A DNA stretch of 64,000 bases from Nitrospiraceae bacterium (GCA_050246315.1 JBFWWG010000003.1:256001-320000); one strand, 5' to 3'; positions 12,241 through 29,839 are shown, counted from the first letter of the stretch. Translations and numbers: made by a program. Notes: generated by a model not told the origin, from the letters alone.

Positions 12241-13086
12241 ATGCCTGACTCCGTTCCTCGCCTCTGGTTGTCGTGCGGTTTTGCCATTCTGATTTGGTAT
12301 ATCGGCCCGGCGTGGGCCGACCAACTGCTGACTGTTGAGGACTCGCCGGCCTATTTCCCAGACGACGTCGGCAACTATTGGTCCTATCGAGGTGAAGTCA
12401 CGGAAGGCCCCGTGCAATCGATCGAACACAAGATCTTCGTCAACGAGTCGAAGGTCCTTCGCACCGAGAAACGGAAGGGCGTCGAGTTGACGGTGTTTCA
12501 TGATTCGAATGCGGGGAACCACGGCCCATCCGACAGTTATTACCGGCGGGACGCCGTGGGCATCGTCTACCATGGTTCCGAGCCCGGCACGCCGCTCGAG
12601 CGACAGCTGGTTCCCTATCAGATCGTACAGTTTCCGCTTCGATATCCGTCGAGCTTTCAGCAGTTCGATCGGAACCAATTGGACTTCGGAAACGACCTGG
12701 ACGGCGACGGCGTCAACGAGCGGGTGGACGTCCAAGGCGTGGCATCGGTCGTGGGACGCGACAGCGTGACCGTGCCGGCCGGGAAGTTCCCTGATACGGT
12801 CCATCTCGAAGCCCGCATGATGCTGCGGATCACGCTGTCCGCCAACAAGCATGCGGTGACCGGAACAGATGTGATGAATGCCTGGTTCGCGAAGGGCGTC
12901 GGGATGGTCAAATATGTCGAGCGTCAAGAGTTGCCGCCGCTGCGGCGCGACCGAGGGCTGGTCAGCGAGATCCAGGAGGAATTGGTGGACTATCAGGTGA
13001 AGGGTCCGCTTCAGTCATTCGATCGGCGCGAATCCCCGCCGCAGGGTATTTTCGCTCACGACACGCGCGGTCATGAATTGCAGTAA
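12241..13086 (+). CDS. secreted hypothetical protein
   Basis: SD GAAAGGA; signal peptide ending AWA; DLDGDG Ca-binding-like motif; VTVPAGKF...WFAKGVGMVK motif. Confidence 0.7.
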   Translation: MPDSVPRLWLSCGFAILIWYIGPAWADQLLTVEDSPAYFPDDVGNYWSYRGEVTEGPVQSIEHKIFVNESKVLRTEKRKGVELTVFHDSNAGNHGPSDSYYRRDAVGIVYHGSEPGTPLERQLVPYQIVQFPLRYPSSFQQFDRNQLDFGNDLDGDGVNERVDVQGVASVVGRDSVTVPAGKFPDTVHLEARMMLRITLSANKHAVTGTDVMNAWFAKGVGMVKYVERQELPPLRRDRGLVSEIQEELVDYQVKGPLQSFDRRESPPQGIFAHDTRGHELQ

Positions 13087-15978
13087 GTAGTCGTCGCCTC
13101 CTGCCTTGGTCCCGACGCCGGACAGCCTGTGTCCTCCGAACGGCTGCCGACCGACCAGCGCCCCGGTAATCGGCCGGTTGATGTAGAGATTTCCTACATC
13201 GAACCGCTCCCTTGCGATCTGAAGATTCTTGGGGCTCCTCGAATAGACCCCACCGGTCAGCGCGTAGTCGGTTGCGTTGGCCATGCCCAGCGCCTGGGAA
13301 AAGTCCGGCGCCCGCATCACAGCCAACACCGGACCGAAGATCTCCTCCTGGGCCAACCGATGCTCGGGACGAATCTCGGCGATCAGGACCGGTCCCTGAA
13401 AATAGCCGGGCCCGGGCATGGCGCGGTCGATGATCAGGCGCCCCTCGTGTCGGCCGATCTCCACATAGTCTCGGACGGTCTTCAGCGCACGCTCGTCGAT
13501 CATCGGCCCCATCCGTGATCCCGGGTCTTCAGGCGGGCCGATCGTGACGGCCAGGACGGCTTCGGTTAAGCGTTGCACAAACAGGTCGTGCACGGCCTCA
13601 TGCACGATGACGCGCGAGCAGGCCGAACACTTTTGTCCCTGGTAGCCGGTGAACGAGGCGACGACGCCCGATACCGCTTCGTCGAGGTCCGCCGTCTCAT
13701 CCACGATGATTGCGTTCTTCCCACCCATCTCGGCAATCACGCGCTTGACGTGCCGTTGCCCCTTCCTCACCTGAACCGCTTGACCGAGAATCCACAGCCC
13801 CGCGTCCTTTGAACCGGTGAAGGCAATCACGCCGACGTCGGGATGTTCCACCAAGACCCTTCCAAGGGCCGGACCGCCGGGCAACACCTGCAAGACACCA
13901 GCCGGTAGACCCGCCTCGGCAAGGATACGTCCGAGCAGACATCCGACCATCGGTGCCCGCTCGGAGGGTTTAAACAGCACAACGTTGCCGGTGACCAACG
14001 CCGCGGAGACCATCCCAGTCGGGATCGCCAGCGGGAAATTCCAGGGCGCGATCACCGCCGCAATCCCCCTGGATTGATAACTCTGATGGTTGAGCTCACC
14101 CGGCTCATGTCCCAGCCGCCGAGGGGCTCCCAACTGTTCCATCCGGTGCGCATAAAACAGCAGGAAGTCGATGGCTTCCGCCACATCCGCATCCGCTTCA
14201 CGCCAGGGTTTTCCTTCCTCCAACACTTCCCAGGCCGCCAGCTCGTACCGCCTCTGCTTCATCAGGGACGCGGCCCTCCTCATGATACTCGCTCGCTCGG
14301 AAACAGGCGTGCCGCTCCATGGCGGCAGCCGCCGCTTCGCCTCCTCCATCACCGCGGACAGATCCGAAGGCAAGACCGTCGGGACGGTTCCCAAAATTTC
14401 ATCGGGCCGGCTGGGATTCCTCACCACGAGGGGTGGACCGAGAGACGGCCCGTCCGAGACCCATGGGATGGAGACCGGTCCTCCAAGGCTACGGCGCACC
14501 GATTGAATCGCCGCCGCCATCGACGCGCGGACCGGCGCCAACGAGAAATCGGAATGGGGCTCATTCCGGAAGGCGACCGCTTCCGCTGCTGGCTCACGTG
14601 TCTCCTTTGAAAGGTGAACAGGCAGGTCCGGTTTGGCCAACAGCACATCGAGCGGTTGAGATTCGACGTATTCCTTCCGTAGGAACGATTCGTTTGAGGT
14701 ATTTTCGAGCAGCCGTCTGACCAGGTACGCCATCCCCGGCAATAACTCGCCAACCGGCGTATATAGTCTGAGCCGCCGCCCCCGTTGAGTGACGGCAGCT
14801 TGAAGCGGCTCGGCCATGCCGTAAATCATTTGATATTCCCACGCATGGGCAGGAAGGTTCAGTCGGCTCGCGTAGGCCTCCGCATGGGCCAATGTACGCA
14901 GGTTGTGAGTACCGAAAGCCGGGCGAATGACTTGGTGGTGATCCAACAACATCCTGGTCAAGGATTCGTAGGCGACGTCGGTTTCGGATTTCTGGGTGAA
15001 CAGCGGGATCGGCCACCCTCGCTGTGTGTACCGAATCCAATCAGAATCCCAGTAGGCGCCCTTGACGAGCCGGACCGTAATCGGCGTCCCTCGCTTCCGG
15101 CACCACGCAATCAGATCAGCCACATCCTGGACCGTGTTCTTGTGATAGGCCTGAAGCGCAAGCCCGGCATGGGGGAAGGCACGATAGGCCGGCTCGGACA
15201 GGAGCCGCATGAAGATGAACAGGGTGAGGTCCTTGAGTTCAGCCTGTTCCATGTCGAAGATGACGCCGGCCGAAATGGATTGGGCGAGGTCCAGCAGCGG
15301 CCGCAATCGATCGGCGACCGCCGCATAGCTGCCTTCCGGATCGATGGGGTCAAGTTGCGAATAGAGCGCGGAAATCTTAATGGACAACTGGGCGCGTGGA
15401 ATGCCCCCGACATGACCCCGCTCAAGCAGGGGAGCGGCGGGCCAACCGACGGCGGTCTGGGCCAACTCACGCAACGCCGATAGGCACCGGTCTCGATAAC
15501 GATCGGCTTCCACTTCCGAGACCGTCGCTTCCCCGAGCAAATCGACCGAGCAGGCGCGGCCATCCTTCCAGAGTTGCGTCAGGATCGGAGCGGCCTGCGA
15601 CACCGTCGCACCGGCAATAAATGTTCCGGCCATCTGCTCGACCTGCTTGCGGAGCGACCGGGCGCCGAGTTTGGCCGCCACAGTCGAGCCGGCCATGAAT
15701 TTCATGCCCCATTGGAACAGCCGGCCCAGGCGCTCCTGGTCGCTGAAGTATTCGTCCACCAGACGGACGACCTGTTCGTCATGACGCAACACCGGCAGGA
15801 CATCGACAAATCGGAACAACTGGACCTTGAATTCCGGATCGTGCATGGCCCAATCCAGCAGACCTTGCGACCAGCGCTTGCGGTCGAACACCGTGGGTGC
15901 CGCTCCGGCCATACCTTGAGCCATGGCGGTTCCAATCTGATGAATCAACGGTTCGAGTGAGAGGGGATCGATCGACAT
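13015..15978 (-). CDS. putA: bifunctional proline dehydrogenase / P5C dehydrogenase
   Basis: DLLGE, RLVKGAYWD, YLVRRLLEN (PRODH); EMGGKN, GQKCSACSR, EEIFGP (P5CDH); no N-terminal RHH domain. Confidence 0.96.
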   Translation of the reverse strand: MSIDPLSLEPLIHQIGTAMAQGMAGAAPTVFDRKRWSQGLLDWAMHDPEFKVQLFRFVDVLPVLRHDEQVVRLVDEYFSDQERLGRLFQWGMKFMAGSTVAAKLGARSLRKQVEQMAGTFIAGATVSQAAPILTQLWKDGRACSVDLLGEATVSEVEADRYRDRCLSALRELAQTAVGWPAAPLLERGHVGGIPRAQLSIKISALYSQLDPIDPEGSYAAVADRLRPLLDLAQSISAGVIFDMEQAELKDLTLFIFMRLLSEPAYRAFPHAGLALQAYHKNTVQDVADLIAWCRKRGTPITVRLVKGAYWDSDWIRYTQRGWPIPLFTQKSETDVAYESLTRMLLDHHQVIRPAFGTHNLRTLAHAEAYASRLNLPAHAWEYQMIYGMAEPLQAAVTQRGRRLRLYTPVGELLPGMAYLVRRLLENTSNESFLRKEYVESQPLDVLLAKPDLPVHLSKETREPAAEAVAFRNEPHSDFSLAPVRASMAAAIQSVRRSLGGPVSIPWVSDGPSLGPPLVVRNPSRPDEILGTVPTVLPSDLSAVMEEAKRRLPPWSGTPVSERASIMRRAASLMKQRRYELAAWEVLEEGKPWREADADVAEAIDFLLFYAHRMEQLGAPRRLGHEPGELNHQSYQSRGIAAVIAPWNFPLAIPTGMVSAALVTGNVVLFKPSERAPMVGCLLGRILAEAGLPAGVLQVLPGGPALGRVLVEHPDVGVIAFTGSKDAGLWILGQAVQVRKGQRHVKRVIAEMGGKNAIIVDETADLDEAVSGVVASFTGYQGQKCSACSRVIVHEAVHDLFVQRLTEAVLAVTIGPPEDPGSRMGPMIDERALKTVRDYVEIGRHEGRLIIDRAMPGPGYFQGPVLIAEIRPEHRLAQEEIFGPVLAVMRAPDFSQALGMANATDYALTGGVYSRSPKNLQIARERFDVGNLYINRPITGALVGRQPFGGHRLSGVGTKAGGDDYLLQFMTARVVSENTLRRGFAPIE

Positions 15979-15988
15979 CACAGCCCCC

Positions 15989-16225
15989 AGGCAGGATGAG
16001 GTGTTTGAAGCCCGTCCGACATTGCCGTTCCTGACGAGGCGAAGCAGGCGCTGGCAGATGCCAGGCCACCGGCCGCGAAAAACCGGAGGTACATTCGCTG
16101 GAATCGGGACCCATTGCTCCGCAGAATGCAATGGGGGCTTCGGTGTATTCGGGGCCGAGAACGAATCAGATGGCGGTGCATCCTTCGCCGAAGTAGAAAG
16201 GGCAATGTCGAACAGACTCCTGCCT
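15989..16225 (-). ncRNA. candidate structured 5' leader of putA
   Basis: Nested long-range stems (15989-96/16218-25, 16014-26/16201-13, 16038-44/16183-89) plus internal hairpins; minus-strand TATACT just upstream. Confidence 0.45.
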
Positions 16226-16469
16226 TCAGTATACACCGACCCAACCAACGGGCCGAGCTCCGCCTTCGTATATTCTCGGGAAGAGATTGCGGGTAGAACG
16301 TCGGACCATCGGGTTTGATCGCAGAGGCGCCTGTGCCATTTCAATTCAACCGGAAGATCGCTTATGATGGGACTCGTCGCCAACGAATTCTTGATGAACC
16401 CGACCGTGCCGGTCCACCGCCGTGGCAAACGGTAGACCCACGCGGGACTATAGAGGTGGAGGAGCTTTC

Positions 16470-17357
16470 ATGTCGCAGGAACACACAGAACAGCCGTCCG
16501 GAACGGGAGACGGGCCGGCCCGATCCAGCCTGATCCCTGGGGTAAAGTATGCCCTCGCCGTCAGCAGCGGGAAGGGTGGGGTCGGCAAATCCACGGTGGC
16601 CGTCAATCTGGCGGTCGCGCTCCGTCGGTCCGGCGCGACGGTGGGTTTGCTTGACGCCGACATCTACGGACCCAACATCCCGATGATGATGGGCGTGACC
16701 AAACCGCCGGAACAACGGGATGGGAAAATCTTGCCGGCCGAAAATCATGGGGTGAAGCTCATCTCGATGGGCTTTTTCGTCCCGGAGGAAACGGCGGTCG
16801 TGTGGCGAGGTCCAATGGTACACACCGCCATCCAGCAATTTTTCCGTGATGTGCAGTGGGGAGACCTGGATTACCTTCTCATCGATCTCCCGCCTGGGAC
16901 GGGCGACGCCCAACTGACGCTGACTCAACTGGTTCCGCTCCGTGGCGCCATCACGGTGACCACCCCGCAGAATGTCGCACTGTACGACGTCCGTAAAGGC
17001 ATCATGATGTTCCAGAAAGTCAACGTGCCGCTGCTCGGGTTGGTCGAAAACATGAGCCACTTCGTCTGCGGTCACTGCGGAGAGAAGACCGAGATCTTCT
17101 CGTATGGCGGAGGAGAGCGCGCCGCCCAGGCCATGGGCATCCCATTTCTCGGCCGCATCCCGATCGATCCCGCGATCCGCACCGGAGGTGACAGTGGGTT
17201 GCCAATCGTCGTGAGCCAACCGGACTCTCCCCAGACACAGGCATTTCTGGACATCGCCGCAAAGATCCGGGAGGAAGTGGAGCAAGCGCCATCGACGACG
17301 CCTCCTCCGCTGGAAAGTTTGCTGAAAAAGATCAAGGCGCCGTTTGGCAAAAGTTGA
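16470..17357 (+). CDS. Mrp/ApbC Fe-S cluster carrier ATPase
   Basis: [34 protein letters not shown]. Confidence 0.95.
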
Positions 17358-19477: not shown

Positions 19478-19506
19478 TTGACTCTCCACGACACCGTCAC
19501 TATAAT
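19478..19506 (+). promoter_or_regulatory. sigma70 promoter of the GlmL-family operon
   Basis: TTGACT-N17-TATAAT. Confidence 0.8.
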
Positions 19507-19578
19507 CACCTCATCATCGTTCCTGTCGTTGTTCGATTTCGCTCCAGCGTTACGCTCCAATCGTTGCGATTGACGCCG

Positions 19579-19944
19579 ATGATCCCGCGTCCGAAAGCTC
19601 CCTTCACAGAACGGCTTCGGAAACTCCGTCCTCAGTTGGCGCATGCCTTTGCGGTTCATCCCGAGGGACGCCTGCTATCACGGGAGGATGAGGCGCTGCT
19701 CGAACGGTTGGCCTCGACCATCATCGATCGCCGCATGGCGATGCCGGCGCTGTTGTTTTTCGAGTCGATGGGCCCGATGAATTTTCTCGGCAGTCAGGTC
19801 CTTCATTTCCTCACGCCTCTCCTCAACCTTGCCTGTCATGCGGCGGAGTTCGACCACGCCGCCCGCCTGCTGGAACGCCGCGACACGATCCCCCGCTTGA
19901 TTGCGCTCATCGAGGCCAAGGCTTCGGTCGCCGCGACCCGATGA
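19579..19944 (+). CDS. small helical hypothetical protein, first gene of GlmL-family operon
   Basis: PALLFFESMGPMNFLGSQ motif; stop overlaps next ATG (ATGA). Confidence 0.75.
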   Translation: MIPRPKAPFTERLRKLRPQLAHAFAVHPEGRLLSREDEALLERLASTIIDRRMAMPALLFFESMGPMNFLGSQVLHFLTPLLNLACHAAEFDHAARLLERRDTIPRLIALIEAKASVAATR

Positions 19945-21812
19945 CGGAGCGGCCGTCCACTCACCTCGCCGCGGACCTGCCGCTGTCCGTCATCATCGCC
20001 ACGGATTGCGGCAGCACCACTACCAAAGCCATCCTCATTGAAAAAATCGGACAGGAATACCGGCAGACGTTCCGGGGCGAGGCTCCGACCACGGTAGAAG
20101 CCCCATTCGAGGATGTCACCCGAGGAGTCCTGAACGCGTTTGCCGAACTCGAGGAGCTATCCGGGAGAAGGATTCTGGACGGCGACCGCCTCATTATTCC
20201 GAGCCGGGTGGAGTCCGACGGCGCGCGAGTCGGCGTGGACATCTATGTCTCGACCAGCAGCGCGGGGGGTGGATTGCAGATGGTCGTCACCGGCGTGGTC
20301 CGCAGTATGACCGGAGAAAGCGCACAGCGTTGTGCCCTCGGAGCCGGCGCCATCGTGATCGACGTCCTGACCTCCAACGACGGCCGGCTGCCGCACGAAA
20401 AGATCGAGCGGATCCGTTCGCTCCGGCCCGACATGATTCTGATGGCCGGCGGAACCGACGGCGGCACGGTAAAGCACGTGGTCGAGATGGCCCAGTACGT
20501 CTCCGCGGCCGAGCCACGCCCCCGGTTTGGCAGCGGCTTCACGCTGCCCGTCGTCTATGCGGGGAACCAAGACGTCCGCCCACAGGTTCAGGACCTGCTC
20601 GGAACCAAGACCGCCCTCGTGCTCGCGCCGAACATCAGGCCGAGGCTCGAAGAAGAGCATCTCGCGCCCGCGCGGGACAAGATCCACGAGTTGTTCCTTG
20701 AACATGTCATGAAGGAGGCGCCGGGCTACCGCAAGTTGATCGAGATGGCCGGCGCACCCATCATGCCGACACCGGCCGCCGTCGGTCTCATCATGGAGAA
20801 AATCGCCAAGCGCCAGCAGATCAATCTGCTCGGCGTTGATATCGGAGGGGCCACGACGGACGTGTTTTCCGTCTTTGATGGCATGTTTAACCGCACGGTG
20901 AGCGCCAATTTGGGTATGTCCTACAGCGTCTCCAATGTGCTGGTCGAGGCCGGCATTTCGAACATTATGCGCTGGGTGCCTTTCACGATCGACGAGCAGA
21001 CACTGCGGAACCGGATCAAGAACAAGATGATCCGGCCGACGACCATCCCACAGACGCTGGATGAGCTCATGGTCGAGCATGCGATCGCCAGAGAGGCATT
21101 GCGGCTCGCTCTGGTCCATCACAAGTCACTCGCAACCGGCCTCAAGGGCATTCGCCAGCAACGCACGATTTCGGATATCTTCGAGCAGCGGCAGACCGGC
21201 CGTTCATTGATCGACATGCTGCGACTCGACCTGATCGTCGGGAGCGGCGGCATTCTGTCCCACGCCCCGCGTCGCGTGCAGTCCATGCTCATGATGGTGG
21301 ATGCCTACGAACCGCTGGGGTTCACGATGCTGTCCGTGGACAGCATCTTCATGATGCCGCATCTGGGCGTGCTCTCCACGGTCAACGAACAGGCGGCGAC
21401 CGACGTGTTCCTGCGCGACTGCCTCATCTATCTCGGCACGTGTGTGGCACCCATCGGACAGGGGAGAACGGGAGAGACGTGTGCCGACTATCGCATTACG
21501 TTCTCAGACGGTCGGTCACCCGAATCCGGACGTCTGGCATTCGGCGAGCTGATCCTGATCCCCTTAGCGCACGAGCACCCGGCGACCATCGCGCTGATGC
21601 CGGATCCCTTGTGCGATGTCGGGCAGGGGAAGGGACAGCCGGTCACCCGAGAGGTCCGGGGAGGGATCGTGGGGCTCTTACTCGACGGCCGGGGGCGGCC
21701 GTTGCAATTGCCCTCGGACCCATCGATCAGGCAGGCCCAGTTGGAACGATGGTCTCGCACGTTGGATCTCTATCCCGCCGCATCATGGCACACGCTTACA
21801 CTCCAGGCCTAA
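19941..21812 (+). CDS. GlmL/MutL-family (glutamate mutase L-like) ASKHA ATPase
   Basis: TDCGSTTTKA and VDIGGATTDVFS phosphate motifs, SSAGGGL, MAGGTDGG, GSGG. Confidence 0.88.
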   Translation: MTERPSTHLAADLPLSVIIATDCGSTTTKAILIEKIGQEYRQTFRGEAPTTVEAPFEDVTRGVLNAFAELEELSGRRILDGDRLIIPSRVESDGARVGVDIYVSTSSAGGGLQMVVTGVVRSMTGESAQRCALGAGAIVIDVLTSNDGRLPHEKIERIRSLRPDMILMAGGTDGGTVKHVVEMAQYVSAAEPRPRFGSGFTLPVVYAGNQDVRPQVQDLLGTKTALVLAPNIRPRLEEEHLAPARDKIHELFLEHVMKEAPGYRKLIEMAGAPIMPTPAAVGLIMEKIAKRQQINLLGVDIGGATTDVFSVFDGMFNRTVSANLGMSYSVSNVLVEAGISNIMRWVPFTIDEQTLRNRIKNKMIRPTTIPQTLDELMVEHAIAREALRLALVHHKSLATGLKGIRQQRTISDIFEQRQTGRSLIDMLRLDLIVGSGGILSHAPRRVQSMLMMVDAYEPLGFTMLSVDSIFMMPHLGVLSTVNEQAATDVFLRDCLIYLGTCVAPIGQGRTGETCADYRITFSDGRSPESGRLAFGELILIPLAHEHPATIALMPDPLCDVGQGKGQPVTREVRGGIVGLLLDGRGRPLQLPSDPSIRQAQLERWSRTLDLYPAASWHTLTLQA

Positions 21813-22915
21813 CGGTCACCGAGCAGGCGAGGGTGCGGCGGCGGCGCCTGCTGCCGCTCGCCGGGACGGTCATCGTACAGGCGGGACAACAGGTAGCCGC
21901 CAAACAGGTCGTCGCGCAGACCAGCCTCCCCGGTAAGGTGTATCCGGTCAACGTTGCCAACCAACTCGGCATCGCTCCGGATGAGATCCTGCACTATCTC
22001 ACCAAGCACGTCGGCGACCCGGTGCAAAAAGACGAGATCGTCGCCGAGAACAAGCCGCTCTTGAAATGGCTCAAGATGGAGATTCCGTCTCCGATCGGCG
22101 GAACGGTCGATTCGGCCTCGCCGATCACCGGACAGATCCTGCTGCGGGAACCTCCGCTCGTGCTCGATTTGCTGGCCTATTTGGATGGTGTCGTCGCCGA
22201 AGTCCACGGTCGTGAAGGCGTTACCATCGAAGCCGTTTGCACGCTGGTTCAGGGCATCTTCGGGGTCGGCGGAGAAACCTGGGGGCCGATCGTCATGGGT
22301 GTGTCCTCGCCCGATGAATCGCTGTCCGCCGAACGGTTGACCCCTTCGATGAAAGGCTGCGTGGTTGTCGGCGGCTCGTTTCTGTCCTACGAGACGATGA
22401 GGCGCGCGAAGGAGTTGGGGATCATCGGATTAGTGGTCGGGGGAGTGCACGACCAGGATATTCGGAGCCTCCTCGGGTACGACCTTGGCGTGGCGATCAC
22501 GGGAACTGAGCGGATCGGCTTCACGTTGATCCTCACGGAGGGATTCGGGACCATTCCAATGGCCGCCCGCACCTTCGCCCTCCTGTCCAAGTCTGAGGGT
22601 CGGCAAGCCTCCGTATCGGGCGCCACACAAATCCGCGCCGGCGTCATCCGGCCGGAAATCATCATCGCCCAAGGGTCGGACGACGGGTTCCGCAATGGAT
22701 CGGACGATCTCGGGTCGAAGGAGGGAATTCAGATCGGCGATCACGTCCGGATCATTCGAGATCCGCTGTTCGGCCGAATCGGCGAGGTCTCGGCCTTACC
22801 CTCCGAGCCCTCTAGGATTGCGACGGAAAGCCTGGTCCGGGTTCTCGGCGTCAGGTTTTCCAATGGCGAAGAGGCTTTCATTCCACGGGCCAACATCGAG
22901 GTTATTGAAGGATAA
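21785..22915 (+). CDS. conserved soluble protein (barrel-sandwich-hybrid-like repeats, C-terminal KOW-like motif)
   Basis: Starts MAHAYTPGL, overlapping GlmL end; VQAGQQVAAKQVVA / VGDPVQKDEIVA repeats; IGDHVRIIRDPLFGRIGEV. Confidence 0.75.
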   Translation: MAHAYTPGLTVTEQARVRRRRLLPLAGTVIVQAGQQVAAKQVVAQTSLPGKVYPVNVANQLGIAPDEILHYLTKHVGDPVQKDEIVAENKPLLKWLKMEIPSPIGGTVDSASPITGQILLREPPLVLDLLAYLDGVVAEVHGREGVTIEAVCTLVQGIFGVGGETWGPIVMGVSSPDESLSAERLTPSMKGCVVVGGSFLSYETMRRAKELGIIGLVVGGVHDQDIRSLLGYDLGVAITGTERIGFTLILTEGFGTIPMAARTFALLSKSEGRQASVSGATQIRAGVIRPEIIIAQGSDDGFRNGSDDLGSKEGIQIGDHVRIIRDPLFGRIGEVSALPSEPSRIATESLVRVLGVRFSNGEEAFIPRANIEVIEG

Positions 22916-22916
22916 C

Positions 22917-24182
22917 ATGAGGTTTTTCGCCAGTACGATATCGGTCCTGATCATGGTGCAGACCGCCGCGCTGTCCGCACCGATCGCACAGGGGCTTGCC
23001 GCGATGGAATCAACCCTGCCGATACCCCAACAGGTCCAGGCCTTTGACACGCCCAGCGACGGCGGCGGTCGTATCACGGTACTCTGGGCTCCCTCGCCTG
23101 GAGACGGCCCGGATCTGCACTACCAGGTGTTGCTCCAGGAGGGACCGCCGCCCGCAGACCCAGCCAAGATGAAGGTCATTGCGGAATTTCCCTCGAATAC
23201 CCACCATGTCAAAGATGCCAACCAGCCCTGGTGGACCAGCCGCGACGGAACCGGCTCTCATCTCTACCAGATCCGCAGCGGCAGAGGGGTCGAGATCAAG
23301 AACGGGATGCCCTATTCGATTGCGGTCGCATCGGTGCAGGGCGGGCAGCGAGCGTTTGCGCCGCCCGTACGGGCGATCGCATCGCCCAATTGGTTCAACT
23401 GGAATGCGTTGAATAATCTCGTCATCGCGCTCTCGTTCGGTCTGCTCGTCCTCTTTGCAATCCGGAGGGCGCACCGGAAACCGATCTTTCTCCGCTATAT
23501 CCCGGGCCTGGACGCCGTGGACGAGGCGATCGGGCGGGCCACCGAACTGGGAAAGCCGGTCATGTACCTGACCGGCGCGCATGACATGAGTGATCCGTCC
23601 ACGGTTGCGGCGGCTGTCATTCTTGGACGCGTGGCGACCCGCACCGCGGCCTACGAGACCGATCTCATGGTCCCCCATCGCAACCCGATCACGATGGCCG
23701 TCTGCCAGGAAATCACTCGACAGGCCTATTTTGAAGCTGGCAAGCCGGATCTCTTCCGCGAAGACGCCAACTTCTTCATCACTGCCGATCAGTTCAGCTA
23801 CACCGCCTCGGTGGACGGCATCATGCTTCGGACCAAGCCGGCCGCCAACTTCTTCATGGGTGCATATTTTGCCGAAGCCCTCCTGTTGACAGAAACCGGC
23901 GCCAGCACCGGTGCTATCCAGATTGCCGGCACCGATTCCGATCACCAGTTGCCGTTCTTTGTGACCACCTGCGACTACACTTTGATCGGCGAGGAACTCT
24001 ACGCCGCCAGCGCGTATCTTTCTCGGGAACCGGTACAGGTCGGCACGTTGCTGGGGCAGGATATCGGGAAACTCACGGTGCTGAGCTTGATTGCAATCGG
24101 CAGCATCGCCGCCACCCTCAAGCTGGGATTCGGCGTCGAATGGGCGCACCTCTTGCTCGATGCCCTGCGGGACGTGAAATGA
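22917..24182 (+). CDS. membrane protein with FN3-like N-domain and DUF6754-like domain
   Basis: Signal peptide; DTPSDGGGRITVLW; TM helix; IPGLDAVDEAIGRATELGKPV and YTLIGEELYAASAYLS motifs; C-terminal TM. Confidence 0.75.
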   Translation: MRFFASTISVLIMVQTAALSAPIAQGLAAMESTLPIPQQVQAFDTPSDGGGRITVLWAPSPGDGPDLHYQVLLQEGPPPADPAKMKVIAEFPSNTHHVKDANQPWWTSRDGTGSHLYQIRSGRGVEIKNGMPYSIAVASVQGGQRAFAPPVRAIASPNWFNWNALNNLVIALSFGLLVLFAIRRAHRKPIFLRYIPGLDAVDEAIGRATELGKPVMYLTGAHDMSDPSTVAAAVILGRVATRTAAYETDLMVPHRNPITMAVCQEITRQAYFEAGKPDLFREDANFFITADQFSYTASVDGIMLRTKPAANFFMGAYFAEALLLTETGASTGAIQIAGTDSDHQLPFFVTTCDYTLIGEELYAASAYLSREPVQVGTLLGQDIGKLTVLSLIAIGSIAATLKLGFGVEWAHLLLDALRDVK

Positions 24183-24829
24183 ATCTGCTCCGTCGCCAAC
24201 TGCCGCTCTTGGTCGCGATGATCACCGGCCTCCTCTTCGCCGGACAATATTACGTTCCCCATCCGGCCTCCGAGGAGATGCTCACCGCCGTCACAAAGTG
24301 GATGCAGATCATCGGCGGCTTTGCCTTGATCCTCGGCATCACCAGCCTGTTCACCGTCCATGCGACCAAGATCCGTCGCAAAGAGGCCGGCTGGGGGTAC
24401 AGCGTCATTCTCTACGCCGGGATACTGGGCACGGTGGCGATGGGGCTCTGGTCGGAAGGCAAGGAAGCGGTCGAGGGAGCGACGACGGCATTCGGATGGG
24501 TCTACAGCTACATGATGGTGCCGCTGCAGGGGACGATGTTCTCGTTGCTGGCCTTTTTCATCGCCTCGGCCGCCTACCGCTCCTTCCGAGCCCGCAGCCG
24601 CGAGGCGGCCGTGCTCCTGACCGCGGCCGTGATCGTCATGATGGGGCGGGTGCCCTTGGGCGAGTACCTGATTCCGATCAGCGGCGACCTCTCGCAATGG
24701 ATCTTGAACGTGCTGAACGCCTCGGTGCGTCGGGCCATTCTCATCGGTGTGAGCCTCGGGGCCGTTGCCCTGTCCTTCAAAATCATCTTCGGCATCGAGC
24801 GCTCATACCTGGGGGGTGGGAAGGAATGA
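24179..24829 (+). CDS. polytopic membrane protein
   Basis: ATGA coupling; about 6 hydrophobic segments; FFIASAAYRSFRAR, IFGIERSYLGG. Confidence 0.8.
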   Translation: MNLLRRQLPLLVAMITGLLFAGQYYVPHPASEEMLTAVTKWMQIIGGFALILGITSLFTVHATKIRRKEAGWGYSVILYAGILGTVAMGLWSEGKEAVEGATTAFGWVYSYMMVPLQGTMFSLLAFFIASAAYRSFRARSREAAVLLTAAVIVMMGRVPLGEYLIPISGDLSQWILNVLNASVRRAILIGVSLGAVALSFKIIFGIERSYLGGGKE

Positions 24830-24830
24830 C

Positions 24831-24900
24831 GTTCACGGTTCACCGTTGGTTGGCCCACGAAGAAGCCGACCAGTTCACGTTTCACGATTCACGAATCACG
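24831..24900. repeat. heptamer tandem repeats (NWTCACG) flanking a hairpin
   Basis: GTTCACG GTTCACC - TGGTTGGC/GCCGACCA stem - GTTCACG TTTCACG ATTCACG AATCACG. Confidence 0.8.
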
Positions 24901-24908
24901 GTCTCCTG

Positions 24909-25748
24909 ATGACATTCGCGGAACGAATGTTGGCCATCGATCGCCGGATCATTTTTGTCGTGATCGGCCTGTGCACCCTGCTGCCTCTCCTCTATCCGGT
25001 GGGGCTCCCGATCAGAATCTCCCCGGAGGTCAAGGGCATCTACGACTACATCGAAGCGATGCCGGAAGGCTCCGTGCTCCTCCTGTCGCTCGACTTCGAC
25101 CCGGCCTCGAAGCCGGAACTGTACCCGCAGGCGGTCTCCATTTTGCGTCATGCGTTCAAGAAAAACCTTCGTGTGGTGGCCATGACCCTCTGGGTGACCG
25201 GCACCGGCATGGCGGACCAGGTGGTCACACAGATCGCCAAGGAGGCAGGCAAGACGAACGGCCGGGACTACGTCTTCCTTGGCTGGAGTCCGGGTGGCAG
25301 CGCGGTCATCATCAATTTGGGACAAGATCTGTACACGACGTTCCCCACCGACTACGGCGGCCGCCCTACCGAGGGCCTGCCGGTGCTCGCCGGAGTCCGG
25401 AATCTCCGCGACATGGACTATGCCGTCTGTCTTGGTGCAGGCAATCCCGGAGTCGGCGAATGGTACGTGTTCGGCAAAGATAAGTATAAGTTCGAGCTGG
25501 GAGGAGGATCGACCGGCGTGATCGCGCCGGGCCTGTATCCCTTACTGAGGAGCGGTCAGATTAATGGGCTCATCGGTGGCCTCAGGGGAGCGGCGGAATA
25601 CGAGAGCCTGATCGGGCAGAAGGGGAGGGCCGTGGCCGGGATGGACGCGCAGTCGGCCACGCATCTTGCCATCATCGTGCTCGTGATCATCTGCAACCTG
25701 TTCTATTTTTCTCTGCAGCACAAGCGCAGGCAGAGCGATCTGCGCTGA
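24909..25748 (+). CDS. membrane-anchored alpha/beta-domain protein
   Basis: N- and C-terminal TM helices; DFDPASKPELYP, GQINGLIGGLRGAAEYE, MDAQS motifs. Confidence 0.8.
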   Translation: MTFAERMLAIDRRIIFVVIGLCTLLPLLYPVGLPIRISPEVKGIYDYIEAMPEGSVLLLSLDFDPASKPELYPQAVSILRHAFKKNLRVVAMTLWVTGTGMADQVVTQIAKEAGKTNGRDYVFLGWSPGGSAVIINLGQDLYTTFPTDYGGRPTEGLPVLAGVRNLRDMDYAVCLGAGNPGVGEWYVFGKDKYKFELGGGSTGVIAPGLYPLLRSGQINGLIGGLRGAAEYESLIGQKGRAVAGMDAQSATHLAIIVLVIICNLFYFSLQHKRRQSDLR

Positions 25749-25770
25749 TCCGTCGAAAGGAGCCTGACGC

Positions 25771-26520
25771 GTGTCGTTCGAGATGCTGTTCGGGGCCTGG
25801 GTCGCGACGGGGTTGACCCTGTTCATCATGACCTTCCTCTATCAGGATAACCCGTTGTTCAAGGCGGCTGAACATCTCTACGTCGGCGTCTCGGTGGGGT
25901 ACGAGATCGTCAAGGCGACGGATATTGTTCTGTTGCGCTTGATCATCAAGCCGATCGCGGAAAACGGCGAATGGTCGCTGTTGATCCCGGTCGGCATCGG
26001 CCTGCTGATGTTGACCCGTTACGTGCCGAAGGTCTCCTGGCTCTCTCGCTATGCCTTCGCCTTCATCGTCGGAGTGGGAGCGGGATTGGCGATCCCGCGC
26101 ACGATCTCCTCCTTCATCCTCAAGCAGATCGAGGATACCGTTCGTCCGCTGTTGACTCTCGACGCCGTGGACGGGATCAGCTTCTCTCTGAGCCTGTTGA
26201 ATCCAGCCAGCAATCTGAACGCCGTGATCATTTTGGTGGGCGTCGCCAGCGTCCTGTACTATTTTCTGTTCACCGTCGAACATGCGGGGCTGGGGCGCGC
26301 CGTAGCCCGCATAGGGATCCTATTTCTCATGATCTCCTTCGGCGCGGCCTTCGGCTACACGGTCATGGCTCGCATGTCGCTCTTGATCGGCCGGCTGACC
26401 GATCTGATCGAATTCGCTTCTCCCGCTTATCACTATGCCAGCCTCTGGCTTGCGGCCGCGACGATCGCCACACTCGCCCTGCGCGCGACCAGACGGAAGG
26501 ATGTTCCGCCTTCCCATTGA
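25771..26520 (+). CDS. polytopic membrane protein
   Basis: SD GAAGGAG; about 7 TM; FLYQDNPLFKAAEHLYVG, MISFGAAFGYTVMARMSLLIGR. Confidence 0.8.
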   Translation: MSFEMLFGAWVATGLTLFIMTFLYQDNPLFKAAEHLYVGVSVGYEIVKATDIVLLRLIIKPIAENGEWSLLIPVGIGLLMLTRYVPKVSWLSRYAFAFIVGVGAGLAIPRTISSFILKQIEDTVRPLLTLDAVDGISFSLSLLNPASNLNAVIILVGVASVLYYFLFTVEHAGLGRAVARIGILFLMISFGAAFGYTVMARMSLLIGRLTDLIEFASPAYHYASLWLAAATIATLALRATRRKDVPPSH

Positions 26521-26599: not shown

Positions 26600-27850
26600 A
26601 TGGATACGTCCTCAACGACCAAACCGGACCGGGTTCAGAGCCATCCGGTGCTCCGGAACCTGCAATACTCGCCGATCAAGGAACAGGACGAACAGTACAT
26701 CGTCCTCTGGGATCCGTCCGGGGTCAGCATCGAGAGGCTCGTGCTCCCGCTGAACTACTTCTTCGTCGTCCAGCACTTTGACGGACAGCATTCGCTTGAC
26801 CAGATTGGGGCACTGTACCTGAATCGCTTCGGCGAGTTCCTGTTGCCGGAAAGGTTGCACCGGCTGGTGGTGGAGCTCGAAGCCAAGCTGTTTTTGGAGG
26901 GGCCCGCATCGGAAGCGGCCAAGGAAGCCCGCCGCAGAGCGTTCCGACAAGGTCCCGTCCGCCGCGCCGCTCATGCTGGAAAGAGCTATGAGGCGGAGGG
27001 ATTTAAACTGCGCCGGCAGATCGAAAGTTGGTATCAATCGAAGGAAGGCCCCGAGCAGAAACCTTCTCCCAACAAGGGGAAACGTATCAAGGGACTGGTG
27101 GCTCCGGCCTATGATCTGAAACAGGCCGGTCCGATTTACGCGTGGGCCTACAAGGAGCTCAATGAGGCGGAGAGCCCGGATGTCTTTGTGCTGCTGGCCC
27201 CCTGCCACGCCGGGATGGACTCCCTGTTCGCCTTCACGGACAAGGACTTCGAGACTCCGCTCGGAACGGTGCCCGTCAACAAACCAATGCTCGAACACTT
27301 ACAGCGGCACGGCGAGGAATTCTTCACCGACGACGCAGCCCATGAGCAGGAGCATGCGCTGGAATTTCAGCTTCCTCTCCTGCTGGACGCGGTCGGCAAG
27401 CAAAGGCCTTGCACGATCGTGCCGATCCTCTGCAGCTTTTCGGCCCAGGATCTGAAAGAGCCCACGGTCAGGACCGGCATCGACCGCATCGTGGACCTTC
27501 TCCGTCATGCCTCATCCGAGGCCGAGGTCGAGCCCTGCGTGATCGCCAGTGCCGACCTCGCCCACATCGGTATGCGGTACGGCGATGCGGCCCCGCCGAC
27601 GGACTTTTCATTCCACCGCTGCATGCAACAGGACCTGGCCATGTTGAAGTTCGTGGAGGATCTCAAACCGGAGGAGTTCGCGTCATTCATTCAGCAGGAA
27701 GGGGACAGTCGGCGCATCACCGGGTTCGCGCCCATCTACAGCCTGCTGCGAATGATCACGGCGGAGTCGGGACAGGTCCACCGCTACGACCGAGGGATTA
27801 CCGACCAATACAATAGCACGGTGACGTACGCCAGCATGGCCTTCTTCTGA
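26600..27850 (+). CDS. MEMO1-family (AmmeMemoRadiSam protein B) with N-terminal extension
   Basis: RRAAHAGKSY, DFETPLG, EHALEFQL, ASADLAHIG. Confidence 0.88.
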   Translation: MDTSSTTKPDRVQSHPVLRNLQYSPIKEQDEQYIVLWDPSGVSIERLVLPLNYFFVVQHFDGQHSLDQIGALYLNRFGEFLLPERLHRLVVELEAKLFLEGPASEAAKEARRRAFRQGPVRRAAHAGKSYEAEGFKLRRQIESWYQSKEGPEQKPSPNKGKRIKGLVAPAYDLKQAGPIYAWAYKELNEAESPDVFVLLAPCHAGMDSLFAFTDKDFETPLGTVPVNKPMLEHLQRHGEEFFTDDAAHEQEHALEFQLPLLLDAVGKQRPCTIVPILCSFSAQDLKEPTVRTGIDRIVDLLRHASSEAEVEPCVIASADLAHIGMRYGDAAPPTDFSFHRCMQQDLAMLKFVEDLKPEEFASFIQQEGDSRRITGFAPIYSLLRMITAESGQVHRYDRGITDQYNSTVTYASMAFF

Positions 27851-27945: not shown

Positions 27946-28470
27946 CTACTCCTTTACCGTGATCGTCATCGAAATCGGTTCAAGCGGATTGTCGGCCTGA
28001 TCTCGCGCCAGCGCCACGATCTTGTCCACGACCTCCATCCCACGGAACACCTCGCCGAAGACGGTATAGGTCCGGTCCAACCCGCTGTTCTCGCCGACCG
28101 AAATGTAAAACTGCGATCCACTGTCGTTGAAATCACGCGTGCGGTTGTTTTCTCGAGGCATCTTGGCCATGGCGACGGCGCCCCGCTTGTGGGGGCGATC
28201 GTTCGGCTCGGGAGGCAGAAAATAGCCTGGGCCTCCCGTTCCATGCTTCGTACGATCCTGGCTCTTACTCAACGGATCGCCGCCTTGAATGATAAAACCC
28301 GGTACCACACGATGGAAAGTCGTTCCATTGTAGAAACCCATCTTAGCCAAATTGATGAAGTTCTCCACGTGTCGCGGGGCTTCATCCGGATAGAATCGGA
28401 TCTTGATCTCGCCGAACTTGGTTGTAATCGTCACGCGTGGATCTTTCTTCTCGAATCCAAGTGTCGCCAT
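27946..28470 (-). CDS. cyclophilin-type peptidyl-prolyl isomerase
   Basis: FYNGTTFHRVVPGFIIQGGDP, GSQFYI, YTVFGEV. Confidence 0.95.
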   Translation of the reverse strand: MATLGFEKKDPRVTITTKFGEIKIRFYPDEAPRHVENFINLAKMGFYNGTTFHRVVPGFIIQGGDPLSKSQDRTKHGTGGPGYFLPPEPNDRPHKRGAVAMAKMPRENNRTRDFNDSGSQFYISVGENSGLDRTYTVFGEVFRGMEVVDKIVALARDQADNPLEPISMTITVKE

Positions 28471-28522: not shown

Positions 28523-29839
28523 TCATCCGGACAGTCCGTCTCCTGGTCTGATCCACCACCACAGCAGTCCTCCGAGGCAGGCGGCGCCGGCGGCGACGCC
28601 GAGCGCCACAGCCCAGCCGAACTGGTCCGCCAGCCAAGGGGTCAGGGTCGGGGAGAGGCTTCCACCCAGGTTCGCCCCCGTATTCATCAGGCCGGAGAGG
28701 GTTCCGGCGTAGGGCGGAGCCAGATGGACAGTGGAGGACCAGTAGGCTCCCACGGTGAAGTACAAGCAACCGGCCCCAAAGGAGAGCCAAAGCACGGCCG
28801 GAAGCGGATGGTCCACCCACGCGCCCAGCGCGATCGACGCACCGGATAGTCCCATTCCGCCCATGCCGGTCAAACACCGGGCCTTTGTGACGCCCAGAGG
28901 GAGGGTGAGCCGATCCGTGAGCCACCCACCGATCGGACAACCGACCAGCATCGCCAAGAACGGAGCCGTCGCAAACGCCGCGCCGCGTAACTCCCCGAAT
29001 CCACGAACGTTCACCAAATACAAATAAAACCAGCTCATGTAGACATAGGCCACATAGCCGAGACACGCATAACTGCCGACGAGCCACCAGACCGTCGGAG
29101 TCCGCAGGATCCGCCGCCAGGGTGTCGTGCCAGGTGACACGGTCGCCGGTCGGCCTTCGAGAATGACCCGGAGTTCCGCACTGTTGATCCCCGGATGATC
29201 ACGCGGATGGTCTCGCGCATACCAGTACCAGAACAGCGCGACCATGAGGCCGAGCCCGGCGGAGAGATAGAAGACGGTCTGCCACCGCCAATTCACCATA
29301 ATCCAAGCGCTGAGAGGCGGCGTGAGGGCGGCTCCGACGCCGATACCGCCGATCGCAACGCCGATCCCCAGCGCCTGCTCTTTCTGAGGCAACCAGTCGG
29401 CCACGGCACGGGTGAAATTCGGCAAGGCGGCCGATTCTCCGATGCCGAGGAGGAACCGTGCCGCCACCAACGAGAGCAGAACGCCGACACCCGAGGCGAT
29501 GCCGATCACGGGAGCGGTCGCCGTCAGAGCGGTCCAGACCGACCACCAGATGACCGCACCGGCCAGCACACGCCTCGCGCCCCAACGGTCTCCCAACCAT
29601 CCGCCGGGAACCTGACAGAGCGCATAGCCCACAACAAAGGCCGAGAACACGTACCCCATTTGCTGATCCGTCAACCCGAACGCAGGCATCATTTGCCTGG
29701 CGGTCACGGAGATGTTCACTCGATCCACGTAGGTGACCACGCTGATCGCGAAGAGCAAGGCGAGAAGGCGCCAGCGCACGTTCGTGGGGGACTCGGTAGG
29801 CGTTGACGGAGAAACCTCGGGGTTGACGGGACTCTTCAT
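28523..29839 (-). CDS. MFS transporter (anion:cation symporter-like)
   Basis: YVDRVNIS, GWLGDRWGAR, RFLLGIGES; about 12 TM. Confidence 0.92.
   Translation of the reverse strand: MKSPVNPEVSPSTPTESPTNVRWRLLALLFAISVVTYVDRVNISVTARQMMPAFGLTDQQMGYVFSAFVVGYALCQVPGGWLGDRWGARRVLAGAVIWWSVWTALTATAPVIGIASGVGVLLSLVAARFLLGIGESAALPNFTRAVADWLPQKEQALGIGVAIGGIGVGAALTPPLSAWIMVNWRWQTVFYLSAGLGLMVALFWYWYARDHPRDHPGINSAELRVILEGRPATVSPGTTPWRRILRTPTVWWLVGSYACLGYVAYVYMSWFYLYLVNVRGFGELRGAAFATAPFLAMLVGCPIGGWLTDRLTLPLGVTKARCLTGMGGMGLSGASIALGAWVDHPLPAVLWLSFGAGCLYFTVGAYWSSTVHLAPPYAGTLSGLMNTGANLGGSLSPTLTPWLADQFGWAVALGVAAGAACLGGLLWWWIRPGDGLSG

Follow-up and report, generated by a model that had tools for sequence, protein, structure and literature searches.

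The window that we analyzed is a 64,000-nucleotide (nt) stretch of the genome of a Nitrospiraceae bacterium (GCA_050246315.1, JBFWWG010000003.1:256001-320000), and our subject is a run of seven genes within it, here called G1 to G7, which encode a small soluble protein, a long-form GlmL-family ATPase of the ASKHA (actin/Hsp70-fold) superfamily, a soluble partner of this ATPase, and four membrane proteins (Table 1). Every one of the seven is present in a single copy in this genome, which is 100% complete. A preliminary description of the window had placed the genes behind a consensus promoter, with tight coupling of the first five, and both features were found. The promoter sequence, TTGACT-17-TATAAT, agrees with the consensus at 11 of 12 positions, a score reached by 1 of 1360 shuffled sequences, and is the top-scoring site between 17 and 29 kb of the window; in relatives, TTGACT-17/18-TATAAT is kept at 11/12 in 62 of the 68 loci (out of 73) that include 250 nt of DNA 5' of G1, which the other 5 lack, and it lies 72 to 97 nt 5' of the G1 match, and we judge the promoter to be real because the hexamers are conserved across related loci. 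The coupling comprises ATGA overlaps at 19941 and 24179, a 28-nt overlap at 21785, and a 1-nt gap at 22916. The gap between G5 and G6 (24826-24909) is filled by a 27-codon open reading frame (ORF) that overlaps both the stop codon of G5 and the start codon of G6, and it contains several TTCACG-like repeats; it could be a translational-coupling relay or an intergenic repeat.

Table 1. Features of the G1-G7 locus (positions in the window) and examples of an associated gene at other loci (positions in those loci; TM, transmembrane; aa, amino acids)
Feature	Position	Strand	Basis
Sigma-70-type promoter TTGACT-17-TATAAT	19478..19506	+	Consensus score and conservation
G1, small soluble protein, family none known	19579..19944 (alternative TTG start 19564)	+	No Pfam/NCBIfam match
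G2, long-form GlmL-family ASKHA (actin/Hsp70-fold) ATPase, 623 aa	19941..21812	+	PF13941 and motifs
G3, soluble G2 partner: barrel-sandwich-hybrid-like repeats, central alpha/beta domain, KOW/SH3-like tail	21785..22915	+	Weak family matches
G4, membrane protein with DUF6754 domain between TM helices	22917..24182	+	PF20539 match
G5, polytopic membrane protein	24179..24829	+	No family or PDB match
G6, TM helix, alpha/beta domain, TM helix	24909..25748	+	No family or PDB match
G7, polytopic membrane protein	25771..26520	+	No family or PDB match
Memo/AmmeMemoSam_B protein	26600..27850	+	Family match; 3' of G7
Small two-TM protein, examples	L160:681-1244, L143:12760-13233, L133:4539-5141

The occurrence of these genes as a block elsewhere was tested and confirmed in the Nitrospirota and, with another gene order, in a second phylum. 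Eighty loci were taken from a genome collection, 78 of them from Nitrospirota; by our own count, G1 to G7 stand in the same order in 51 of the 78 Nitrospirota loci, 26 run off a contig end, and the remaining one (L091) has 1 kb downstream of G3 without a G4 match. Full-length PF13941, the Pfam family of the ATPase, and PF20539 (DUF6754), that of G4, have an identical distribution over 201 Nitrospirota genomes, each being present in the same 33, namely this one and 32 of the 33 other members of the family Nitrospiraceae; in one further Nitrospirota genome, a fragment of G2 lies at the end of a contig. In the second phylum, that of genome G201 (Xenobia/Eremiobacteraeota; 81 genomes), DUF6754 is above the cut-off in 40 genomes and the long ATPase is present in 39, with 38 carrying both, two DUF6754 only, and one the ATPase only, some of these long forms having been classed by frame length and match span rather than by alignment. 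We attach no p-value to these co-occurrences because related genomes are not independent. Gene order in that phylum runs G4-G5-G6-G7-(small membrane gene)-G1-G2-G3; parts of the system are dispersed in G201 and G202. By name only, G2 extends to Planctomycetota, Bacillota, and Ca. Zophobacter, and G6 extends to Fidelibacterota, WOR-3, and Zixibacteria. G1 to G7 are a real, conserved ATPase-membrane system, and no published description of it was found in the literature that we searched.

G2 matches PF13941 at 6e-126 (421 bits against a Pfam cut-off of 27) and contains both of the ASKHA motifs noticed at the outset, DCGSTTTK and DIGGATTD; D22, G24, T28, D300, and G436 are invariant in 51 sequences. 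It is a member of the ASKHA superfamily with intact motifs, which we take to be phosphate-1, phosphate-2, and adenosine, and from these we infer that it probably hydrolyzes ATP. It is also outside the GlmL/Or-4 group. Its bit scores fall below the NCBIfam cut-offs (225 versus 475 for NF040745, 199 versus 600 for NF040744, and 158 versus 204 for TIGR01319), it has a C-terminal extension of ~120 aa that is absent from GlmL, and its alpha/beta insert is the predicted docking surface; in a quick, unrooted tree of 71 proteins that carries a long-branch warning, 56 long forms are split from 15 short GlmL/Or-4 forms with a Shimodaira-Hasegawa-like approximate likelihood ratio test (SH-aLRT) value of 100. 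Many proteins that databases call "glutamate mutase L" or "methylaspartate mutase" are therefore mislabelled. Among G2 homologues, P0003, P0008, P0050, P0096, and P0081 carry fusions to large N-terminal domains that look extracellular (M1 peptidase) or to GntR, helix-turn-helix, or zinc ribbon domains, and L161, L207, and L213 have a tandem G2-G3-G1-G2-G3 duplication, the two G2 copies lying on different branches, with an M20 or S58 peptidase upstream.

Membership in PF13941 raises the alternative of an ordinary accessory role for G2, in the service of a B12-dependent mutase and with the membrane genes as bystanders, and the genome does contain one methylmalonyl-CoA mutase, on another contig. 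The absence of a mutase from the window, already remarked upon in the preliminary description, extends for two families to the whole genome, in which no GlmE and no member of the KamD/OraE family (PF09043) was found; the PF09043 search was shown to work by the matches that it obtained in genomes of the second phylum. GlmE exceeds its cut-off in none of the 201 Nitrospirota genomes, including none of the 33 that carry the long ATPase, and has no match across 225 loci, in which the only GlmS-like domain (L149) lies 5.5 kb from G2 on the opposite strand. In the second phylum, PF09043 is present in 6 of 40 DUF6754 genomes versus 31 of 41 other genomes, so that this ATPase clade does not track B12 mutases. 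Short PF13941 genes, used as a positive control, lie between glmS and glmE in 6 of 11 cases and after an OraE-like gene in 2 of 11, with 2 unresolved, and mutase-bearing genomes carry their own short GlmL or Or-4 next to the mutase genes. The exception is G257, where G1 is directly followed by a short GlmL of the Or-4 type and a racemase-like gene (L241:3776-6254, G257:C116), an arrangement that speaks for the accessory role but may be a rearrangement or an assembly join; G257 nevertheless retains its long G2-G3 pair, on another contig. The system is independent of B12 mutases, and the accessory-factor explanation, which the separate tree branch also opposes, is largely refuted and deserves scarcely any credence.

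The membrane unit begins with G4, in which residues 156 to 403 match DUF6754 (3e-111, 371 bits against a cut-off of 27). The protein consists of a hydrophobic N terminus, a variable ectodomain, a TM helix, the DUF6754 domain, which is likely a cytoplasmic six-stranded Rossmann-like fold, and a second TM helix; the G, R, T, E, and G of a GRxTExG motif (G206-R207-x-T209-E210-x-G212) are invariant in 58 sequences. Of the earlier "FN3+DUF6754-like" assignment, the DUF6754 part is borne out and the FN3 part is not confirmed: the N terminus has no Pfam match, with a weak fn3 match in one paralogue only (E 3e-4, below the cut-off). In homologues the ectodomain is replaced by a beta-propeller or a Ser/Thr/Pro-rich linker, or is absent, so the role first given to the FN3-like ectodomain was overstated, and the ectodomain is dispensable. 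G5, G6, and G7 have no family or PDB match by sequence, and a search for a characterized transporter among the membrane proteins gave no solved structure or named family by sequence. G5 has three invariant residues (R6, R134, and R185), and conserved residues of G7 are D26-N27, E34, R93, E170-H171, R201, and R208. The alpha/beta domain of G6, which matches only unnamed Atlas clusters, is predicted to lie outside the inner membrane.

A complex model of G2 (residues 14 to 613) with the G4 core scored 0.70, 0.70, and 0.71, whereas each of the three controls scored 0.00; contact agreement was 97%, and the partner predicted local distance difference test score (pLDDT) was at least 74. The mark that we applied is reached by 116 of 157 solved pairs versus 2 of 215 mismatched pairs, a calibration that is only rough with our own alignments. 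The modelled interface joins G2 residues 119-124, 145-148, 170-179, and 402-406 to G4 residues 202-213, the helix that bears GRxTExG, the first three G2 stretches belonging to the alpha/beta insert. It coincides with alignment columns that are invariant in G2 and in G4, and no comparable complex turned up in the PDB by sequence. The model supports predicted docking of G2 on G4 via the GRxTExG helix. The earlier suggestion that the ATPase is part of a multisubunit membrane complex is thereby supported, in a form that favors direct G2-G4 contact, and since the predicted interface specifies residues on both sides, the question is directly testable.

Several loci contain paralogous membrane modules. 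L184 and L222 each have three modules of G4 to G7, the last of them truncated where the locus ends, divergent from one G2-G3 pair; L160 has two modules and a third G4 beside one G2-G3 pair, and L196 has one module and a second G4. The copies form three classes common to different genomes, with G4 core identities of 65 to 77% within a class versus 50 to 65% between classes in one genome and G6 identities of 52 to 63% versus 30 to 41%. Because the G4 core is similar between classes and G6 is the subunit that diverges most between modules, we infer that docking probably uses one site in all classes, with outer recognition specific to each class. In G201 and G202, G7 is followed by a further copy of G6 (L128:12405-13280 and L127:12384-13631), which in G201 is split over two frames.

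The reading that we favor, with confidence falling somewhat short of even, is that G1 to G7 form an ATP-driven transporter with a shared energizer. G2, with its fixed partner G3, would dock on the Rossmann-like domain of G4, which is likely cytoplasmic, and ATP use by the pair would power the passage of solute through a membrane unit whose likely components are G4 to G7; nucleotide-dependent closing of the ASKHA cleft could move the G2 insert and, through G4, the membrane core of G5 and G7, while specificity may be set by the outer domain of G6 and the variable ectodomain of G4. One G2-G3 pair might serve several membrane modules, as in the group II energy-coupling factor (ECF) transporters, in which one ATPase pair serves several S-components. 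Set against this reading is the looser linkage of the membrane genes in metagenomes: all four are present in 21 of 79 loci, G4 to G7 are adjacent in 11 of the 21 long-flank loci (five of the 11 Nitrospira-like) and not in the other 10, the membrane genes are found in 0 of 5 loci with a G2-G3 fusion, and G4 occurs without G5 to G7 in L137 and L146.

Two other explanations turn on the nature of the G4 domain. G4 to G7 might be a membrane enzyme or cofactor complex on which G2-G3, like a reactivase, uses ATP to load, release, or reset a ligand held by the Rossmann domain of G4, as described for GlmL on glutamate mutase; no cofactor or enzyme gene recurs among the neighbors, the structural match of the G4 domain is not above other Rossmann folds, and we regard this remodelling role as unlikely. 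Or the complex might be a gated channel or a transmembrane signalling device, with the G4 domain as an RCK/TrkA-N gate and G2 as a nucleotide-state switch rather than a motor. RCK folds are indeed among the structural matches to G4, but they cover 116 to 129 residues, fewer than the 135 to 150 of matches to the DHS-like NAD/FAD-binding fold, and genes for a kinase, cyclase, or regulator do not recur next to the core genes; gating or signalling seems to us slightly less likely still.

The soluble components bear on a further possibility. G1, found in 49 of the 79 metagenome loci and fused to G2 in P0031, has no Pfam or NCBIfam match. Of 150 representatives, 42 have G3 and G2 as a single fused protein, and G3 was modelled with a pLDDT of 86. 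The barrel-sandwich repeats and KOW-like tail ascribed to it at first sight are matched weakly in this copy (E ~0.008), the assignment being firmer in fused homologues (NQRA_N, 1e-5; RnfC_N, 1e-4), and its center has a weak RraA-like sequence match (E 0.11). Uptake might be coupled to chemistry, G2 activating or hydrolyzing an incoming amide or amino-acid derivative in the manner of the related hydantoinase/oxoprolinase ATPases and G3 acting as a swinging carrier. Such a scheme would fit the weak Hydantoinase_A match of G2 (6e-6), the biotin/lipoyl-like repeats of G3, in a hairpin of which K97 (window 22073-22075) is present in 33 of 35 sequences, and the presence upstream of the system of lipA here and of gcvP in six other loci. 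K97, however, is two residues out of register with what we take to be the lipoyl motif and is not conserved in the fusion-clade consensus, G3 has no conserved His or Cys, and no hydantoinase B-type subunit was seen among the scanned neighbors, so that we hold coupled chemistry to be improbable. In one lineage, an unknown protein of ~250-290 aa is encoded between G2 and G3 (L184:11824-12582, L216:6271-7020, and L220:2914-3723), and exbB(D) lies 3' of G3 in L184, L220, and L222.

For the putative transporter, candidate substrates were sought in a scan of 124 of the 176 ORFs within 1.5 kb of core genes at non-Nitrospira metagenome loci, the other 52 being omitted manually as near-duplicate or short. 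The system lies inside Opp-type operons in L215 and L224 and after two Opp-type permeases in L177, flanked in these three loci by Opp-type permease, ATPase, or binding-protein genes; peptidase genes adjoin it in L161 and L213 (M20), L207 (S58), L195 (S49), and L205 (M48), ExbB recurs in three loci, and in P0008 an M1 peptidase and a TM helix are fused to G2. Peptides or amino-acid derivatives are the best substrate lead, through weak links, and a lead only, because the neighbors are mostly housekeeping genes.

A small two-TM protein with a soluble tail (Table 1) is encoded directly 5' of G1 at many loci outside Nitrospira, in clusters of 14 and 8 loci; it has no significant match in this genome and is likely an eighth subunit absent from Nitrospira. 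The Memo/AmmeMemoSam_B gene follows G7 in those Nitrospira loci that reach far enough and is probably a passenger, since it was not seen at loci of other lineages. Farther out in the window, genes that we named from sequence, with no family call, presumably encode PutA-type dehydrogenase-like (13015-16428), Mrp/ApbC-like (16422-17357), cyclophilin-like (27946-28470), and major facilitator superfamily transporter-like (28523-29839) proteins.

The system probably belongs to the core physiology of one of the major lineages of nitrifiers, because it is single copy and near universal in the sampled Nitrospiraceae and has a conserved promoter. We know of no ASKHA-fold ATPase established as the motor of a solute transporter, and the transporter reading, if true, would therefore add a coupling mechanism. 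We would go further only tentatively, to a claim that is possible rather than probable: that this is a new class of primary active transporter in which the energizer has an actin/Hsp70 fold, rather than being of the ABC (ATP-binding cassette), P-type, or AAA+ kind, and a shared G2-G3 pair docks via the GRxTExG helix on interchangeable four-subunit modules, the class being core in Nitrospira-family nitrifiers and widespread in uncultured phyla.

Known systems resemble this one in parts. GlmL/MutL of glutamate (methylaspartate) mutase and Or-4 of ornithine degradation have ASKHA motifs and the alpha/beta insert in common with G2, at 26 to 31% identity over ~480 aa; G2 differs from them in its subthreshold scores, C-terminal extension, own branch, G3 partner, lack of a mutase, and linkage to membrane genes. 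Membrane proteins that carry a Rossmann domain on the cytoplasmic side, with transhydrogenase PntB domain III or RCK/TrkA-N gating domains, resemble the G4 domain generically, in matches tied with Sir2, PGK, and GT-B folds, but the G4 domain lies between two TM helices and has no sequence signal. For the N-terminal barrel-sandwich hybrid domain of NqrA/RnfC, and for RraA, profile matches of weak to moderate strength were obtained with parts of G3 or its fused homologues; unlike Rnf/Nqr, the system has no Fe-S cysteines (no conserved Cys in G3, G5, G6, or G7) and no matches to Rnf/Nqr membrane-subunit families, and no Nqr/Rnf subunits are among its recurrent neighbors. Compared with ECF and ABC transporters, the seven proteins have no match to an ABC-type ATPase or a permease domain in Pfam or NCBIfam, and none to EcfT or S-components in Pfam, NCBIfam, or the PDB. 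The group II ECF transporters, with an ABC rather than an ASKHA ATPase and without the four membrane subunits seen here, nevertheless offer an analogy, not a homology, in that a single cytoplasmic ATPase module stands next to several membrane modules that have diverged.

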